Positions 1-19,248 of a DNA stretch of 64,000 bases are shown piece by piece. A program made the translations under genes and the position numbers. The DNA is from Candidatus Nomurabacteria bacterium (GTDB lineage: Bacteria; Patescibacteriota; Minisyncoccia; Phycocordibacterales; UBA9973), in NCBI GenBank assembly GCA_026396065.1, contig JAPLXO010000004.1, forward strand, positions 18,387-82,386, read 5' to 3'. The first letter of the stretch is position 1, and each line of letters opens with the position of its first letter. The notes beneath the pieces were generated by a model. That model saw nothing but the letters and a program-made list of their open reading frames with translations. It was not told the origin of the DNA and made no database searches.

Positions 1-2851
1 TCTGATCAGTTTTTGATTCTGTTGTAGTGAAAGAATATTCTGGTTCAATGGTGTCTTTTGTAGCGTTAGGATCAATTTTAAAGGTGGCATTAGTAGGAGC
101 TACTTGTTTTTTCGATGTAGTAGGATTAACGGTGATTGATCCTGGGGTAAGTGTCGGAGCTATGAATGATTGGATTGGAGACCATTGGCAGAAGGTCATT
201 TTAGTAGCGCCGGCATTTTCTTTGAGAGGATCTGGGTCGTTCAAACATCTCTGACGCCAGAAATATTGTTGGCCAGGTACAAGCAATGGAAGTTCTACAG
301 AAACCTTACCTGTTAAATTACCATTAGCAATCACGGGCACAGGACCAAAAGAACCAAAATGAAGATCCTTTCTTGGTTCCCAAGAAGGTCCATAATTCTT
401 AGCAACTATTTCAAATTTATATTCTCCTTTAGTACCACCGAATGAAAGCGTTGATATTGTTTTGGATGGATTCTGTGAAATGCCTAGCACCGCTCCACCA
501 GTACTTTGATTAATAATTATCAAAGGTATACCAGATGTTAATACAAGCTGATTGTTTGCTTGAGGTGTTATGTTCATACCAGTAAGTGTAGTCATTTTAG
601 GGAAGAAGTCGTCTATGTTGGAATCGTAGTCATATAGACCAGTCAGGAATGCATTTTGTCTGATCAGATCGTCATTGGCATAATCATATGGTTGATCTGG
701 TGGATTATAGGGATAATATTTATTATTTTCGGTGTAATATCCATTTGCATATGCCACTTTTATATCAGAAATTCGACTCCACTCTAAAATATCTTTAAAC
801 TTATTAACCACCATTTTTCTGGAATCATAATTTTGATTTGGAATGATTTGTCGGGTGACATATAGATCAGAATATTGGTCTGGTGCTTCTCCTGTGCCTA
901 TTTGTGTCGTACTGGTTCCACTACCATTTATTGCAAGGCTTGCAGTATTAGTTTGAGTTGTTTGAGTGTTTGTTCCTATGCCACCAATCTGTGTAGTCGT
1001 TCCTGTTGTATTTGGAGTAATGGTAGGTGACGCATCAAGATTTGGTAATTTATCTAAGTCAGCAATATTTTCAGCTACATCTAGAACATATGCGGTGGCA
1101 GAAGCAGACTTGTTCCAAACTGGGAAATAAAATGAGAATGGTTCACGAGGAGCAGGAACCTCTATAATTCCGTCTTGATAATATTGCACATATACAGGAT
1201 TATTATTTTCATCAATACCTCTCACTCTCCAATATATGTACACATACGAAGGTACACCATTAGCATTATTCCCTCCGGGAATAGTTGCCTGACTTAGCTG
1301 TGCCCCTGGGCTTGAAGCAAAGTTATATTGAAACCCGGGTTTCCATTTGATTAAATCATCATCCATTTTTAAAGGAGCAGTCGGGTACATATCATTACTG
1401 ATGACATTTGTAGTGTGTTGAGAAACTCCACCAGCAGGACTGGTAAAATTAAATGTTGCTAAGTCTGTAAAGGGTGTCGAGTTTGGAAAAGGTGCATCAG
1501 AAAATTGAATTTCATATCTCCTCGCTGCATCAATTTTTTTCCAAGAGATAAATTCATATCCAGGACGATATCCACCTGTAGGCTTTCCATTAAAATAATA
1601 TCCATTATCACCAATACATAGAGGGGTTCCCGTGCCGACATCTGCTCCTCCACGAGCGAAATATATATGACCTACATTTACAGAGCAGTCGTAATAACGT
1701 GGGTCACCTGGGTGTGCTGGAGTAGTACTGTATGATGGAACTTGGATATTAAATGGATTCGCAGAATATCCATCACTGCCATGAAAAATCATATCACCAT
1801 GCACTCTAGCATTTTGCTGATCTACTGGATACACTGACCAGTTATAAGTGTTCAGACCGTATCCAGGGAATGTATAGCTCAAAGTTGTTACTGGTAAGAC
1901 AATATCGATTCCTCCATTAGGTAAACCGGTAGGTAATCCATCAATACCATTGTATGCGACAATATGTAAATGGTGCCCGGTTATTGCTGGCTGGCCTGCT
2001 GGCTGAGAAAAGGGTTTCCATTTTAATGTTACCGGCATTGAAGGCATAGATTCCGCTGGATTGCCAAGGGACCAATACGTTATGGGATATTCTTTTGCAT
2101 TATTTTGATTGTTTTCTTTATATGCTTCAAATATAGAACTGAGGGCTTTATTCCAGATATTTGAATGCGTGTATAAACTATCTGGTGGCCAAGCTAAGCT
2201 CTCATTTCCTCCGAAACCTGCTGGAAGTTTATAACTCGCTTGAATAAAACCTTTTGAGTCAATTTCAGTTGGATCTGCATCTGATGTTGAGTTTGAAGTT
2301 CCCACAATAAATGGATCATTATGTGGAAAAGAACCCAAAAATGGCTGCAGTATGTTTAAATCATATGGCCAACCAGAAACATTTACAGATCCGGTACCAC
2401 TATCATTTAAAATAGAACTTGGATTAGGAAAAGAAAGTGATGTATATTTGTTTGGTATAGAAGATAATTGAGGCAATGGATTGAGCATCGACATGTTTAT
2501 GGTTATAGGTGAAGCAATAACACCTCTATGAGGATTACCCCACCTTTGAGGGCCTCCTTTAACAGCATTTATTGATCCCTCTTTACCAAGAGAGTGGGCG
2601 TCCTCTGCGTTATAAGAAGGCATTCCTACTTCTGAGCATTTGCCAGCATGGGTTAATGAACACGTTGCATTATCATTGGTACAAGACCATACTATTACCT
2701 TAGGAGTGCCATCATCATATTCTTCTGGCACGCCTTGATATTCTGTACTATTTGTAGTACAGCCAAGTTGAATCGCGTAAATAAACTTCGCTCCACTCAA
2801 AACCAACACCATTATTAATAAGAACTTCGAGATATTTATAAATATTTTCAT
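1..2851 (-). CDS. Large secreted protein, partial: N-terminus at 2851, C-terminus beyond the window start. About 950 aa are visible, with a signal peptide (MKIFINISKFLLIMVLVLSGAKFIYA) and Thr/Asn/Gly-rich, beta-rich repeats.
   Basis: Continuous minus-strand reading frame from ATG at 2849-2851 to position 1, translated by eye. The last ~1.1 kb was re-checked codon by codon and has no stops. The ORF is absent from the track because it runs off the window edge. Function is unknown. Confidence 0.6.
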   Translation of the reverse strand, partial: MKIFINISKFLLIMVLVLSGAKFIYAIQLGCTTNSTEYQGVPEEYDDGTPKVIVWSCTNDNATCSLTHAGKCSEVGMPSYNAEDAHSLGKEGSINAVKGGPQRWGNPHRGVIASPITINMSMLNPLPQLSSIPNKYTSLSFPNPSSILNDSGTGSVNVSGWPYDLNILQPFLGSFPHNDPFIVGTSNSTSDADPTEIDSKGFIQASYKLPAGFGGNESLAWPPDSLYTHSNIWNKALSSIFEAYKENNQNNAKEYPITYWSLGNPAESMPSMPVTLKWKPFSQPAGQPAITGHHLHIVAYNGIDGLPTGLPNGGIDIVLPVTTLSYTFPGYGLNTYNWSVYPVDQQNARVHGDMIFHGSDGYSANPFNIQVPSYSTTPAHPGDPRYYDCSVNVGHIYFARGGADVGTGTPLCIGDNGYYFNGKPTGGYRPGYEFISWKKIDAARRYEIQFSDAPFPNSTPFTDLATFNFTSPAGGVSQHTTNVISNDMYPTAPLKMDDDLIKWKPGFQYNFASSPGAQLSQATIPGGNNANGVPSYVYIYWRVRGIDENNNPVYVQYYQDGIIEVPAPREPFSFYFPVWNKSASATAYVLDVAENIADLDKLPNLDASPTITPNTTGTTTQIGGIGTNTQTTQTNTASLAINGSGTSTTQIGTGEAPDQYSDLYVTRQIIPNQNYDSRKMVVNKFKDILEWSRISDIKVAYANGYYTENNKYYPYNPPDQPYDYANDDLIRQNAFLTGLYDYDSNIDDFFPKMTTLTGMNITPQANNQLVLTSGIPLIIINQSTGGAVLGISQNPSKTISTLSFGGTKGEYKFEIVAKNYGPSWEPRKDLHFGSFGPVPVIANGNLTGKVSVELPLLVPGQQYFWRQRCLNDPDPLKENAGATKMTFCQWSPIQSFIAPTLTPGSITVNPTTSKKQVAPTNATFKIDPNATKDTIEPEYSFTTTESKTDQ

Positions 2852-2917
2852 ATACTAAATAATACCATATTTTCAAAAATTACAACCCCCCCGTGGATAA
2901 CTGAAAATAAAAACAAA

Positions 2918-2940
2918 TGTCGGAGGGAAACACTCCGACA
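2918..2940. repeat. Solo REP-like hairpin (tgtcggag-ggaaaca-ctccgaca), preceded by an aacccccc tract.
   Basis: 8-bp perfect stem whose cggaggg core matches the REP hairpins flanking the RAYT gene at 3725 and 4409. The same aacccccc(c) tract precedes the left REP at 3697-3708. Confidence 0.5.
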
Positions 2941-2981
2941 TAAGGTTGCAGAAGAGAAATAAAATTCTAAAAAAGACAAAC

Positions 2982-3011
2982 AAAAAATCCCCATTCAGTT
3001 GGGGATTTTTT
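2982..3011. terminator. Bidirectional rho-independent terminator (tcccca-ttcagt-tgggga) flanked by A-run and T-run.
   Basis: Perfect 6-bp GC-containing stem with a T tract on both strands, lying between convergent genes ending at 3040 (minus) and the upstream large ORF. Confidence 0.55.
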
Positions 3012-3039
3012 GTTTGTCTCAAAAGAAACATGATTAAGT

Positions 3040-3654
3040 TTATCTGTTACCACCAAGTTTTTTTGTACAAGCGGCAACTTCATCATCAATACATTGCAGA
3101 TAATCTGGATATGAGAGATGACGACCACCACATAAATTAATAGCAAATTGTCGACAAAATCCACCATTTGGTGCTTTAAGATCTCCATTACTAGAAACAC
3201 CTTTTGAAATAGAACGATTATACCAATTATATAAAAAGGTTGAAGTTTCAACTTGTTGCTTTTTATCAAAAGCAAGAACAGCTTTTTTAAAATCATTTTG
3301 AAATTTTGTCTGTGCTGTAGTTAATGTTAATGTTGCTCCTGCTTGAGTAGCTCCTGTTCCTGTTACCGTATGTAAAGGAGGATTAATTGGATTTGCTAAA
3401 CAGGTTTGAAAAGTACCTCCAGCTGCATAACAATCATCAAGAGAAGCATACTCTGGAGGACAAGAACCATTAAGACAATAAGTAAAAGGTTGTGGAGTAG
3501 GAGGGACTATTGGAATACTTCCAACTACTGTTGCTGTCTGACTAGATTGTAAAATGAGAGAATCTTTAGCAACACCGAGAAGAACAAAGACCGCAAGACT
3601 AGCCACTACTACACCAGCACTAACGACTAAAAACTTTTTAATAGTATTTTGCAT
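3040..3654 (-). CDS. Secreted Cys-containing hypothetical protein (204 aa) with an N-terminal signal/TM.
   Basis: ORF with a hydrophobic N-terminus (FLVVSAGVVVASLAVFVLLGVA) and multiple Cys. No family recognised. Confidence 0.5.
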   Translation of the reverse strand: MQNTIKKFLVVSAGVVVASLAVFVLLGVAKDSLILQSSQTATVVGSIPIVPPTPQPFTYCLNGSCPPEYASLDDCYAAGGTFQTCLANPINPPLHTVTGTGATQAGATLTLTTAQTKFQNDFKKAVLAFDKKQQVETSTFLYNWYNRSISKGVSSNGDLKAPNGGFCRQFAINLCGGRHLSYPDYLQCIDDEVAACTKKLGGNR

Positions 3655-3724
3655 AAAATTTAATAATTTGACCTATTTTTAATAATATTGTAATTATAAC
3701 CCCCCCCCACAAAAATGCAAGACA

Positions 3725-3743
3725 GCGGAGGGTTCCCCTCCGC
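3725..3743. repeat. REP palindrome (gcggaggg-ttc-ccctccgc), left flank of RAYT.
   Basis: 8-bp perfect GC stem 27 bp upstream of the RAYT start. It is the reverse complement of the hairpin at 4409-4431. Confidence 0.7.
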
Positions 3744-3769
3744 CCTAAACTCTGTTATACTAAATATAT

Positions 3770-4396
3770 ATGTCTACAAGAAAACAATCTTTTGCAATAA
3801 ATGAATTTTATCATCTATATAATAGAGGAACTGAAAAAAGAACAATATTCTTAGAAAAGAAAGATTATGAACATTTCTTGTTTTTAATGCATATTTGTAA
3901 TACGAGCAAAAGTATTGAATTAAGGAAAATTGGTAAAAACTTTGATCGCAAGGAAACTTTAGTTAATATCGGAGCGTACTGTTTAATGCCAAATCATTTT
4001 CATATTTTAGGTTACGAAAAAATAGAAGGTGGAATTTCTAAGTACATGCTTAAACTATTAACTGCATACACAATGTATTTTAATAAAAAATACAAACGAA
4101 CAGGAAAACTATACGAAGGAGTATTTAAATCAATTCATGTAAACACGGACCGTTACTTGAAATACCTTTATTCTTATATACACCTGAACCCAGCAAAATT
4201 AGTTGATAAAAATTGGAAAGAAAACAAAAAAAGAAATACTGCTGAGTTATTAAATTATGTTTTTAATTATAAATATTCTAGCTTAGAAGAGTATTTAAAT
4301 TTAAATTTTAATATAGTAAATCAAAATCCATTTCCAAATTATTTTGGAAAACTAAATGATCATAAAAAAGAACTTTTTGAATGGTTAGAAATTTAA
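3770..4396 (+). CDS. REP-associated tyrosine transposase (RAYT), IS200-like Y1 HUH family.
   Basis: 208 aa with the HUH motif LMPNHFHIL and the catalytic Tyr region YSYIHLNPAKLV typical of RAYT/TnpA_REP (PF01797 family). Flanked by inverted REP hairpins. Confidence 0.75.
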   Translation: MSTRKQSFAINEFYHLYNRGTEKRTIFLEKKDYEHFLFLMHICNTSKSIELRKIGKNFDRKETLVNIGAYCLMPNHFHILGYEKIEGGISKYMLKLLTAYTMYFNKKYKRTGKLYEGVFKSIHVNTDRYLKYLYSYIHLNPAKLVDKNWKENKKRNTAELLNYVFNYKYSSLEEYLNLNFNIVNQNPFPNYFGKLNDHKKELFEWLEI

Positions 4397-4408
4397 AAAT
4401 AACAACGA

Positions 4409-4431
4409 GGGCGGAGGGGAACCCTCCGCCC
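4409..4431. repeat. REP palindrome (gggcggaggg-gaa-ccctccgccc), right flank of RAYT, inverted relative to the left copy.
   Basis: 10-bp perfect GC stem 13 bp downstream of the RAYT stop. Confidence 0.7.
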
Positions 4432-4468
4432 TAGCTCGATTATAATTTTAGGCATATAATTAAAATCT

Positions 4469-5053
4469 ATGGCAAATATAAATCAAAAACCTTCGAAGTT
4501 TATGTACAATCTTTTGCATGTGCTTCCAGCATTTGCAGATGAAAGTAAAAATGTTATTAATGTAATTGTCGAAGTTTCTGCAGGCAGTATAAATAAATAT
4601 GAAATTATCACTGAGTCTGGTCAATTGAAACTCGACCGTGTCGGCTACTCTTCCCTTTCGTATCCATTTACTTATGGGGCAATTCCAATGACTTGGGATT
4701 ATGATGGCGACCCTCTCGATGTAGAAATAGTAAACATTACAGAGCCACTCGTACCGGGATCATTGGTAGAAGCTAGAGTAATTGGTGTGATGAAATTCGT
4801 AGATGGTGGAGAAGTAGATGATAAAATCATAGCTGTTTTAAATGACGACAGACGTTCTGACCATATAAAACATGTCGACGACCTAGGTGAATACTTTAAA
4901 ACACAGACTAAATATTTCTGGGAAAATATAAAATTCTTAAAGAAACCAGGCACAGGAGTAGTAGAGACTTTCTACGGACCAGATGAAGCTATGAAAGTCC
5001 TCAAAGAATGCGAAGAAAAATATAAAAATGAATACGCTCCAAAATTAGAATAG
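4469..5053 (+). CDS. ppa: Inorganic pyrophosphatase (family I).
   Basis: 194 aa with the motifs VIVEVSAGS..KYE and DGDPLDVEIV characteristic of soluble family I PPase. Terminator hairpin at 5060-5092. Confidence 0.85.
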   Translation: MANINQKPSKFMYNLLHVLPAFADESKNVINVIVEVSAGSINKYEIITESGQLKLDRVGYSSLSYPFTYGAIPMTWDYDGDPLDVEIVNITEPLVPGSLVEARVIGVMKFVDGGEVDDKIIAVLNDDRRSDHIKHVDDLGEYFKTQTKYFWENIKFLKKPGTGVVETFYGPDEAMKVLKECEEKYKNEYAPKLE

Positions 5054-6798: not shown

Positions 6799-6810
6799 AA
6801 AGTTTCTATT

Positions 6811-6840
6811 AAAAAATCCCCTTTAAAAGGGGATTTTTTA
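6811..6840. terminator. Rho-independent terminator (atcccctt-taaa-aggggat plus T-run).
   Basis: Perfect hairpin flanked by A-run and T-run. Confidence 0.6.
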
Positions 6841-6879
6841 ATTTTGACAAAAGAGAGCAATAAATATAATATGGGGAAT

Positions 6880-9840: not shown

Positions 9841-9887
9841 AAAAACTCCCTGCAAAATGAATTGCAGGAAGTTTTTTTATAATTTTT
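9841..9887. terminator. Terminator hairpin ctccctgcaa-aatgaa-ttgcaggaag plus T-run. A near-identical copy lies at 11245-11288.
   Basis: Hairpin plus T tract. Forms a repeat family with 11245-11288. Confidence 0.55.
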
Positions 9888-9892
9888 AAAGA

Positions 9893-11058: not shown

Positions 11059-11244
11059 TTTTCAAATATTAAATTGTTTATTATTAATTTAGTTCAAGAT
11101 ATTATCACAATTCCCTATCAAAGGAACACTGATAATATCTCGACTAAAAACAATAAATACAAAATACTTGTCGAAGGGCTTTTTTTATAAAATTACATCA
11201 AATACTACGAAATGTCAATCATTCTAAAAATGCTAATAAAAATG

Positions 11245-11288
11245 AAAAAACTCCCTGCAAAATAAATTGCAGGGAGTTTTAAAAAAAA
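11245..11288. terminator. Terminator hairpin ctccctgcaa-aataaa-ttgcagggag, a copy of the 9841 element.
   Basis: Perfect 10-bp stem and T-run. Immediately downstream of the pepD-like stop on the minus strand. Confidence 0.55.
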
Positions 11289-16968: not shown

Positions 16969-17166
16969 TTCCCAACAACTCCCCTCACCGTGAAAATGGT
17001 GTGGGGAGATTTTGTTTTTTGTGCGGGATAAGAGAGTCGGTCACTTATAAATTTCTACTGAAATTTTATGCGACCCCGGCTCGGCGCGTCCGCCTCCGCC
17101 TTTCTCCTCACTTCCCCATCACAAAACAAAATCGCCGAGGACATGCCTCGGCTCATTTGTTTTTTG

Positions 17167-17702: not shown

Positions 17703-17897
17703 ACTAAAAATCCCGCAATTGCGGGATTTTTAGTTTTAAAAGTCGGGCTGCTGGGAATCGGCTATTACATAGCCAGGTGCTTTTCTACCTCGCTACGCTC
17801 GTACAGAAAAGCCTTTCGATATCCCAATAAAAGCAAATCAATTTGCTTTCTCCAGCCCAAACAAAAACAAACAGGTTTTACCTGTTTGTTTTTTAGT

Positions 17898-18936: not shown

Positions 18937-19176
18937 TACTATAAAAAAGCTGTTTTTATGTCTTTTATATAAAATGTCTTTATAATATAAGCTAGAATGG
19001 AAATTAACTACTTAAATAAACAGATAAATATATGTCCTTTATACACAATACCCCCACAGTTATCCACAGTTTTAGATAAAATCCTTACAAAATAAGGAAT
19101 AAACAAAAGGACAACTTGCTAAGTTTTTGAATTGATTTCGTTGTGAATCCGAGCTGATTAGGCTAGTACTTAAATG

Positions 19177-19248
19177 TGCACCCGGAGGGATTCGAACCCC
19201 CAACAACTGCTTCGAAGGCAGGCATGATATCCATTTCACTACGGGTGC
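19177..19248 (-). tRNA. tRNA-Arg (anticodon TCG), 72 nt.
   Basis: Acceptor GCACCCG/CGGGTGC, anticodon loop CTTCGAA, T-arm GGGGG-TTCGAAT-CCCTC. There is one C·T mismatch at the top of the anticodon stem. Confidence 0.65.

Follow-up and report, generated by a model that had tools for sequence, protein, structure and literature searches.

A probable REPtron-like module in Patescibacteria: a single-copy RAYT-like Y1 HUH gene between inverted hairpins that share an AGG-N5-CCT core

The closest described relatives of the locus analyzed here are the REPtrons, in which the Y1 HUH enzyme TnpA-REP (RayT/YafM) of E. coli is encoded between flanking repetitive extragenic palindromic (REP) sequences or bacterial interspersed mosaic elements (BIME) (Ton-Hoang 2012, PMC3333891; Messing 2012, PMC3479197), and which make up subclass 2.2 of Quentin 2018 (PMC6006769). 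The TnpA-Y1 proteins of subclass 2.1 in the same classification correspond to the Group 1 REP-associated tyrosine transposases (RAYTs) of Bertels 2017 (PMC5581495) and to the TIRYT proteins and TIRtrons of Di Nocera 2013 (PMC3733652); their motif set is NH[YF]H, Y[IV]HLNP and SS (PMC6006769), and they have been described without REP-like hairpins and with a DnaA_C or helix-turn-helix (HTH)-like C-terminal domain, the terminal inverted repeats carrying GGGGWSAS. The tyrosine motif separates class 2 (Y-x-x-x-N-P) from the IS200 insertion sequences (Y-x-x-x-Q) (PMC6006769). The present work deals with a stretch of 64,000 nucleotides from a Candidatus Nomurabacteria bacterium (assembly GCA_026396065.1, contig JAPLXO010000004.1, positions 18,387 to 82,386), referred to below as the window, in which a RAYT-like Y1 HUH gene (3770–4396, plus strand) lies between two inverted hairpins. 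With a probability of about three in four, this locus is a REPtron-like module formed by a single-copy class 2 Y1 HUH RAYT-like enzyme and the hairpin repeats that the enzyme recognizes, an instance of a familiar type of system, seen here in a lineage for which it had not been described, and not a new mechanism. RAYT genes bordered by hairpins are common knowledge, and subclasses with atypical hairpins lacking GTAG have already been described. A literature search found no paper linking RAYTs to Patescibacteria, also called the Candidate Phyla Radiation, and the AGG-N5-CCT core, the overlap with the −35 position, the leaderless start and the local clustering reported below appear to be undescribed.

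The gene encodes a protein of 208 amino acids with the HUH motif at N75-H76-F77-H78 (in PNHFHIL), the tyrosine motif YIHLNP at Y136-I-H-L-N-P and an SS tail motif at S170-S171. The identical protein is named 'MAG: transposase [Candidatus Nomurabacteria bacterium]' at NCBI, where it is encoded on a contig of 124.5 kb, and the Pfam family Y1_Tnp (PF01797) matches it with 27 bits, just above the gathering cut-off of 23. Homologues with a length of about 210 residues number more than 7,900, the best 120 of them being 70–78% identical and mostly from Nomurabacteria or other Paceibacterota. Patescibacteria have small genomes, and the RAYT-like gene is strongly conserved, usually in single copy, in more than 590 of their very small species-level genomes. 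When 84 homologues (40–78% identity) are aligned, the residues N75-H76-F77-H78, N140 and S171 are invariant, and Y136, H138, L139, P141 and S170 are kept in at least 90%. All 84 match Y1_Tnp; no other Pfam family was found in more than five of them, and an HTH-type family in none.

An AlphaFold2 model built from 53 close homologues (predicted local distance difference test score, 87.8) allowed the comparison to be extended to the fold. Its top match in the PDB with Foldseek is 4er8_A, the E. coli TnpA-REP bound to a REP hairpin (E 5.6e-5, TM 0.69), and the TnpA proteins of IS608 and ISDra2 match as well, more weakly. Chains of the tRNA-His guanylyltransferase Thg1 rank between the TnpA matches, with a much poorer fit (root mean square deviation of about 10–12 Å). 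The family profile aligns the HUH and YIhLNP motifs with eHMH and YIYINP of TnpA-REP.

The hairpin pattern GCGGAGGG-N3-CCCTCCGC occurs exactly at 3725–3743, with the loop TTC, and at 4411–4429, with the loop GAA. Both copies form part of a 22-nt inverted repeat (3725–3746 and 4408–4429) that is 100% complementary, whereas direct alignment gives merely 87% because the 3-nt loop is inverted; the term inverted is therefore correct. The left hairpin (3725–3746, centre 3734) consists of the 8-bp stem at 3725–3743 and three further nucleotides of the repeat arm, and the right hairpin (4408–4432), the perfect reverse complement of the left copy, has a stem of 11 bp. The gaps are 26 nt from the left hairpin to the ATG and 11–14 nt from the stop codon to the right hairpin, and the hairpins are flanked by GACA and CCTA. 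A third, decayed hairpin (2917–2941; ATGTCGGAG-GGAAACA-CTCCGACAT) holds a copy of the pattern with three mismatches at 2920–2938. Its left arm CGGAGGG is kept, one C of the right arm that is invariant in the family is replaced by A (CCT to ACT), which gives a 7-nt loop, and the orientation of this loop is nearer to that of the right copy. Folded as single-stranded DNA, the left, right and third hairpins reach −9.8, −14.4 and −9.6 kcal/mol (z-scores of −3.8, −5.7 and −7.2). No further copy of the pattern is present in the 64 kb, and 100 shuffles gave zero matches. Two copies in the window are thus intact and one is decayed; none of the three is farther than 0.85 kb from its only RAYT gene, and the other ~60 kb are free of copies.

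Much of this had been anticipated in the original prediction, made from the letters of the sequence. It had assigned the reading frame to the REP-associated tyrosine transposases from NHFHIL and YIHLNP, both of which are present, and had named PF01797 as the family to look for; the Pfam match, the motifs, the fold match and the profile alignment agree on a class 2 Y1 HUH protein. The GC-rich hairpins in inverted orientation that it had reported on either side of the gene correspond to the 22-nt repeat, the spacing it gave (27 bp upstream and 13 bp downstream) is close to the measured one, and its diverged solo copy at 2918–2940 is the decayed hairpin. It had further noticed a C tract shared by the solo and left copies, and these tracts are indeed the only runs of seven or more C in the window, both following ATTAYAA.

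A closer view of the hairpins was obtained by comparing 84 loci, of which 80 were fetched from species-representative genomes and three more came from homologue look-ups. The hairpin signature required GG at −4,−3 and CC at +3,+4, counted from the centre, and three or more additional pairs. Such a hairpin precedes the gene in 69 loci and follows it in 63; in 61 loci it is present on either side. In 58 loci the two flanking copies have a common stem, with the loops inverted in 31, direct in 25 and otherwise arranged in two. The sequence of the stem varies between genomes and CGGAGG is confined to the closest relatives, while an A at −5 and a T at +5 are invariant (69/69), where the search had demanded pairing only; the conserved core is therefore AGG-N5-CCT. 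In the ungapped alignment of the hairpins 89% of the cells pair, against 58.6% in shuffles, and the covariation score is 0.716 against 0.155. The pairs that were not imposed by the search are formed in 60–62 of 67 sequences by four pair types, and control alignments that had been slid drop to 34–48% pairing. Because the same arrangement recurs in 61 of the 84 loci, with stems that are matched within a genome and co-vary between genomes, the flanking hairpins are most likely the cognate repeats of the RAYT-like enzyme.

Two observations made on these loci concern the gene and its hairpins jointly. Four of the sampled genomes (locus pairs L012/L018, L020/L022, L023/L049, the last on one contig, and L043/L088) contain two RAYT paralogues that are about 50% identical, each with its own type of flanking hairpin. 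At the commonest downstream position, the TAG of the hairpin's TAGG is the in-frame stop codon of the RAYT gene (14 loci, for instance L018, L021, L028, L043, L047, L071, L076 and L086, with the hairpin centre 4 nt after the stop), so that the last RAYT codons are encoded by the left arm of the hairpin.

Compared with the REPtrons, the locus shares a single-copy Y1 HUH gene with the Y-x-x-x-N-P motif, the best structural match (4er8_A), the placement of the gene between inverted cognate hairpins, a hairpin type proper to each paralogue and some orphan intergenic copies. It differs in that the hairpins of Patescibacteria lack the GT[AG]G foot and carry the conserved AGG-N5-CCT inside the stem instead, in the number of copies (a handful here versus hundreds), in the absence of doublets at the window locus and in the protein, which is 40 residues longer, has marginal sequence similarity (E 0.13) and does not reach the cut-off of the NCBIfam equivalog. 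The description of the locus as a textbook REPIN/RAYT arrangement in the original prediction is thus not sustained: there are no doublets and no GT[AG]G foot at the locus, the equivalog score is 30 bits against 80 and the other ~60 kb are free of copies. The combination that it had named as its refutation, no PF01797 match and no additional copies, did not occur: PF01797 matches, and orphan exact hairpins are present in relatives (see below), with none more in the 64 kb. With subclass 2.1 the window protein has the NH[YF]H, Y[IV]HLNP and SS tail motifs in common, and the locus the low copy number and flanking repeats of which the rest of the genome often has no copies or only a moderate number; compared by description, it differs from this subclass in its clear hairpins and in the lack of an HTH tail domain in its 208 residues. 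Neither inverted GGGGWSAS nor a DnaA_C-type HTH tail was found at the locus, where a C tract stands on the left side only.

The upstream hairpin is placed with a fixed geometry relative to the start of the gene. In the window a −10 box (TATACT, 3756–3761, plus strand), read from the sequence, is situated 8 nt before the ATG at 3770, and the centre of the left hairpin (3734) is 22 nt before this box, on the −35 position. In the family the distance from the hairpin centre to the ATG has a median of 37 nt, and a −10-like box is found in 63 of 69 loci at a median of 23 nt after the centre (22–24 nt in 28 of the 63), ending 6–8 nt before the ATG in 47 of them. A Shine-Dalgarno (SD)-like motif is seen in one of the 69. 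Given the closeness of the −10 box to the ATG and this near lack of SD motifs, the RAYT mRNA appears to be leaderless, with the hairpin occupying the −35 position. Upstream loops read TTG in 23 loci and CAA in four, as compared with 8 and 16 downstream, and the upstream TTG loop together with the 3' arm often reads TTGCCT, a −35-like hexamer with a 17-nt spacer. The location of the hairpin on the gene's own −35 suggests autoregulation.

The same start geometry is seen elsewhere in the window. An SD motif precedes one of its 41 long reading frames (at least 150 residues), and a strong −10 box ends 5–9 nt before the first ATG in 12 of them; ppa, the downstream neighbour of the RAYT-like gene, has TATAAT at 4455–4460 and its ATG at 4469. 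The few SD motifs and the near −10 boxes suggest widespread leaderless mRNAs, that of ppa included.

The hairpins are mostly not dispersed REPs, and are sometimes dispersed. A search of 52 loci for the hairpin proper to each, allowing one mismatch and covering 744 kb beyond the gene, gave only seven extra copies, all of them 0.65–2.1 kb away. A looser search adds more copies near the RAYT gene: own-type copies per 100 kb amount to 9.8 at 0.3–1 kb, 2.3 at 1–2.5 kb, 1.5 at 2.5–5 kb and 0.47 at 5–10 kb (71 loci). In relatives the own-type copies are thus concentrated in the nearest 2 kb or so around the gene. In the window there is no spread beyond the decayed third copy. The exact 19-mer of the window was also found in JGI metagenomes, at a RAYT locus (protein 67% identical) with four copies and at no fewer than six distinct intergenic sites without a RAYT in the fetched stretch, on 27–97-kb contigs from one and the same sample series. 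A pair of such RAYT-free sites is present on each of two contigs, and the contigs with orphan copies encode proteins 40–76% identical to those of Patescibacteria loci, partly syntenic; matches on high-GC contigs, where no such Patescibacteria-like proteins are encoded, were dismissed as chance. The orphan sites indicate that hairpins of this type can spread. The repeat family of the source genome itself appears to be minimal, with two intact copies and one decayed copy.

Further hairpins of related appearance were recorded during these searches. Three exact 19-mers on low-GC contigs without a RAYT in the fetched stretch (L109 at position 4051, JACCDN011102987.1; L107 at 793; L114 at 8108) include one intergenic copy, on a contig whose ribonucleotide reductase (RNR) genes are 75–89% identical to those of the P0002 genome, and two copies inside reading frames. 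Other hairpin families of the same architecture, often in inverted doublets, occur in some loci, and 44 of 54 distant hairpins with stems of at least 7 bp have the A-T pair of the family core. REPIN-like doublets or small clusters of AGG-N5-CCT hairpins are present in L038, L017, L065 (−1194/−1175 and +3820/+3839), L077 and L081, and L052 has six copies between +4751 and +4950; the stems of the doublets and clusters are unlike the hairpin of the local RAYT gene and presumably belong to another paralogue in the genome. Within the window, hairpins that fit AGG-N5-CCT by chance at 17131–17155 and 17866–17890 (centres at about 17143 and 17878) were set aside: they immediately follow tRNA-Gly(tcc) and tRNA-Pro(tgg) on the minus strand, and their A/T tails mark them as tRNA terminators, not as members of the repeat family. 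A CGGAGGG at 19183 is inside tRNA-Arg.

Plasmid and phage collections hold only remote homologues of the RAYT-like gene (25–35% identity), and its divergence is comparable to that of other shared orthologues, the RAYT identity being the higher one in 14 of 22 comparisons, a small sample. In line with these two findings, the module is probably inherited largely vertically. Synteny around the gene is not conserved, the neighbouring genes being different in every genome examined. In the window its neighbours are ppa and a gene without homologues (3040–3654).

Several points weigh against the interpretation of the locus as a REPtron-like module. The NCBIfam equivalog for RAYTs (NF047646, REP_Tyr_transpos) scores 30.4 bits where 80 are required, and sequence searches of the PDB return nothing relevant with the single sequence and, with the profile, the solved Y1 enzymes at an E value of about 0.1. 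The 8 nt that adjoin each end of 151 hairpins contain no conserved base; this leaves neither a foot of the GTAG type nor a candidate for a guide or cleavage site. The copy number refers to the 64 kb covered by the search of the source genome, and it is no more than plausible that the orphan copies reside in the same genome as the metagenome contig with the RAYT. As regards the promoter, the hexamer at the −35 position of the window is poor (TTCCCC), and the suggested autoregulation through the upstream hairpin is deduced from sequence geometry. Binding and cleavage by the enzyme we infer by analogy, and a co-varying DNA palindrome could equally be a double-stranded dimer site.

If that last point were pursued, the protein would be a domesticated DNA-binding regulator and the palindromes its double-stranded operators, with no cleavage and no role in repeat mobility. 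The few and local copies, the fixed geometry with which the upstream palindrome overlaps the −35 position, and the perfect dyad symmetry with an invariant AGG/CCT core, which suits a dimer, are in keeping with such a protein. The outer stem, however, varies freely while its pairing is kept, which is the signature of a structure and not of a sequence-specific operator, orphan copies are located away from any promoter, and all 84 homologues, at 40–78% identity, have the HUH histidines and at least 90% of them the tyrosine motif, which argues that catalysis is probably retained; a mere regulator is thus considered quite unlikely. It is far less probable still that the hairpins are ordinary transcription terminators, as the original prediction had them double, or chance palindromes unrelated to the protein. 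A terminator scan does flag the right and third hairpins, in minus-strand readings only, where there is no gene to terminate or where a canonical terminator already precedes. The left hairpin, 22 nt before the −10 box of the RAYT-like gene, separates two genes that are transcribed away from each other and therefore cannot terminate either, and no hairpin has a T run on the strand of a terminable gene with the possible exception of the third copy, behind the canonical terminator. The role was accordingly rejected for the left and right hairpins. The real terminators of this genome are AT-tailed and of a different kind. Zero chance matches are expected, and the recurrence of the hairpin-gene pairing in 61 of 84 loci contradicts this explanation.

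The gene and its two hairpins might, on the other hand, constitute an IS200-like insertion sequence, autonomous and transposed as a whole by the single-strand peel-and-paste mechanism. The IS200/IS605 elements (IS608, ISDra2) have the same HUH Y1 fold and hairpins adjoining the gene ends, and here too there are hairpins close to both ends of the gene, with the promoter under the first of them and the TAG stop supplied by the second in 14 loci; the neighbouring genes differ from genome to genome, and the loops are direct, as at the ends of IS608, in 25 of 58 loci. The tyrosine motif, however, is of the NP and not of the Q type (PMC6006769), and there is neither a tnpB nor a set of multiple identical copies at the window locus, where a single copy is found. 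The two flanking hairpins are identical palindromes in inverted orientation, and with the loops inverted in the window and in 31 of 58 loci the ends are not equivalent on one strand. Paralogues in the same genome are about 50% identical and have different hairpins, unlike near-identical insertion sequence copies. The divergence of the RAYT gene tracks that of other genes, the homologues on plasmids and phages are remote, and loss of synteny is expected anyway at 50–78% protein identity. Such an element is therefore regarded as unlikely.

For the REPtron-like module a mode of action can be proposed by analogy with the solved enzymes. The enzyme would bind the hairpin once this is extruded in single-stranded DNA, would recognize it by its loop and its AGG/CCT top, and would cut and rejoin the DNA at the hairpin through a 5'-phosphotyrosine intermediate, as TnpA-REP and the TnpA of IS608 do. 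This activity may keep the two flanking copies identical and may occasionally seed new copies nearby or elsewhere, and binding to, or extrusion of, the upstream copy would repress the enzyme's own promoter. A bolder version, which we hold to be rather unlikely, sees in the RAYT-hairpin pair of Patescibacteria a conserved self-regulating local housekeeping module and not a repeat spreader, whose hairpin carries the −35 and whose extra hairpins, at a distance of one gene, bound accessory-gene cassettes. If it were true, the enzyme could excise or insert single lineage-specific genes such as that at 3040–3654, or exchange them, as hairpin-bounded cassettes. To the question of what RAYTs do for their hosts the Patescibacteria family contributes a stripped-down example, with two or three cognate hairpins, a simple and invariant AGG-N5-CCT core and one hairpin built into its own promoter, and it speaks against the mass proliferation of repeats as the reason why the enzyme is retained. 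In annotation, the gene would be labelled as a RAYT-like Y1 HUH gene with cognate hairpins and not as an active insertion sequence.

The gene bracketed by the third and left hairpins (3040–3654, minus strand) encodes a Cys-rich protein of 204 amino acids with an N-terminal hydrophobic membrane anchor or signal. No Pfam or NCBIfam family matches it, and a search of 5.8 billion proteins retrieved only itself. Of the seven loci that have a near-exact third copy, the six others likewise have it about one gene's length (0.65–2.1 kb) away from the RAYT gene. Measured from the hairpin centre to the RAYT gene, third own-type copies are at +676 in L027, +2060 in L033, +1112 in L036, −643 in L040, −709 in L048 and −653 in L068, and also at +470 in L013 and +882 in L046. 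The intervening genes, identified in five of those six loci, are unrelated and mostly uncharacterised; one encodes a beta-helix surface protein and one a PsbP-like protein.

The two C tracts of the window are placed 16–25 nt upstream of the third and left hairpin copies. The C9 tract (3700–3708, plus strand) follows ATTATAA, 16 nt upstream of the left hairpin, and the C7 tract (2886–2892, within 2886–2901, plus strand) follows ATTACAA and is continued by GTGGATAAC, 15 nt upstream of the third hairpin. As the tract and its ATTAYAA precede both copies, the third copy duplicates a unit of about 70 nt and not the hairpin alone. C tracts similarly precede the RAYT hairpins in two close relatives (L006, upstream of 10106; L090/L101), and, read on the minus strand, the tracts stand directly before −10-like boxes of neighbouring genes. 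The GTGGATAAC sequence (2893–2901) is a DnaA-box-like motif on the minus strand. Near RAYT genes, at no more than 300 nt, the DnaA-box-like GTTATCCAC is enriched about 8-fold (10 in 49.6 kb versus 31 in 1,213 kb), mostly just outside the hairpins, and was seen near the RAYT gene in L006, L017, L031, L038, L053, L065, L067, L072 and L084. The window contains only two copies of it, one at 2893–2901, touching the C7 tract beside the third hairpin, and the other at 19059–19067, where a perfect TTATCCACA adjoins a C5 tract in the neighbourhood of tRNA genes.

The gene at 3040–3654 is followed by a canonical bidirectional intrinsic terminator (2974–3019, minus strand) with a 20-bp stem and A and T tails. 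It belongs to a group of bidirectional terminators that are built alike, with a short GC stem between an A-run and a T-run, and are found in this AT-rich window (30–37% GC) at 2974–3019, 6808–6842, 9842–9888 and 11234–11280, two of which are 73–82% alike. A search of Rfam over 2600–4700 gave sub-threshold terminator-type matches at 2861–3064 and a weak one at 4397–4519, with none on the left hairpin. Finally, the start of a large minus-strand gene that runs off the left end of the window (region 2810–2892) was called at 2812. The in-frame ATG at 2851, with a TATTAT box 7 nt upstream in the leaderless geometry, is the more likely start, and it adds the hydrophobic N-terminus MKIFINISKFLLI to the encoded protein.

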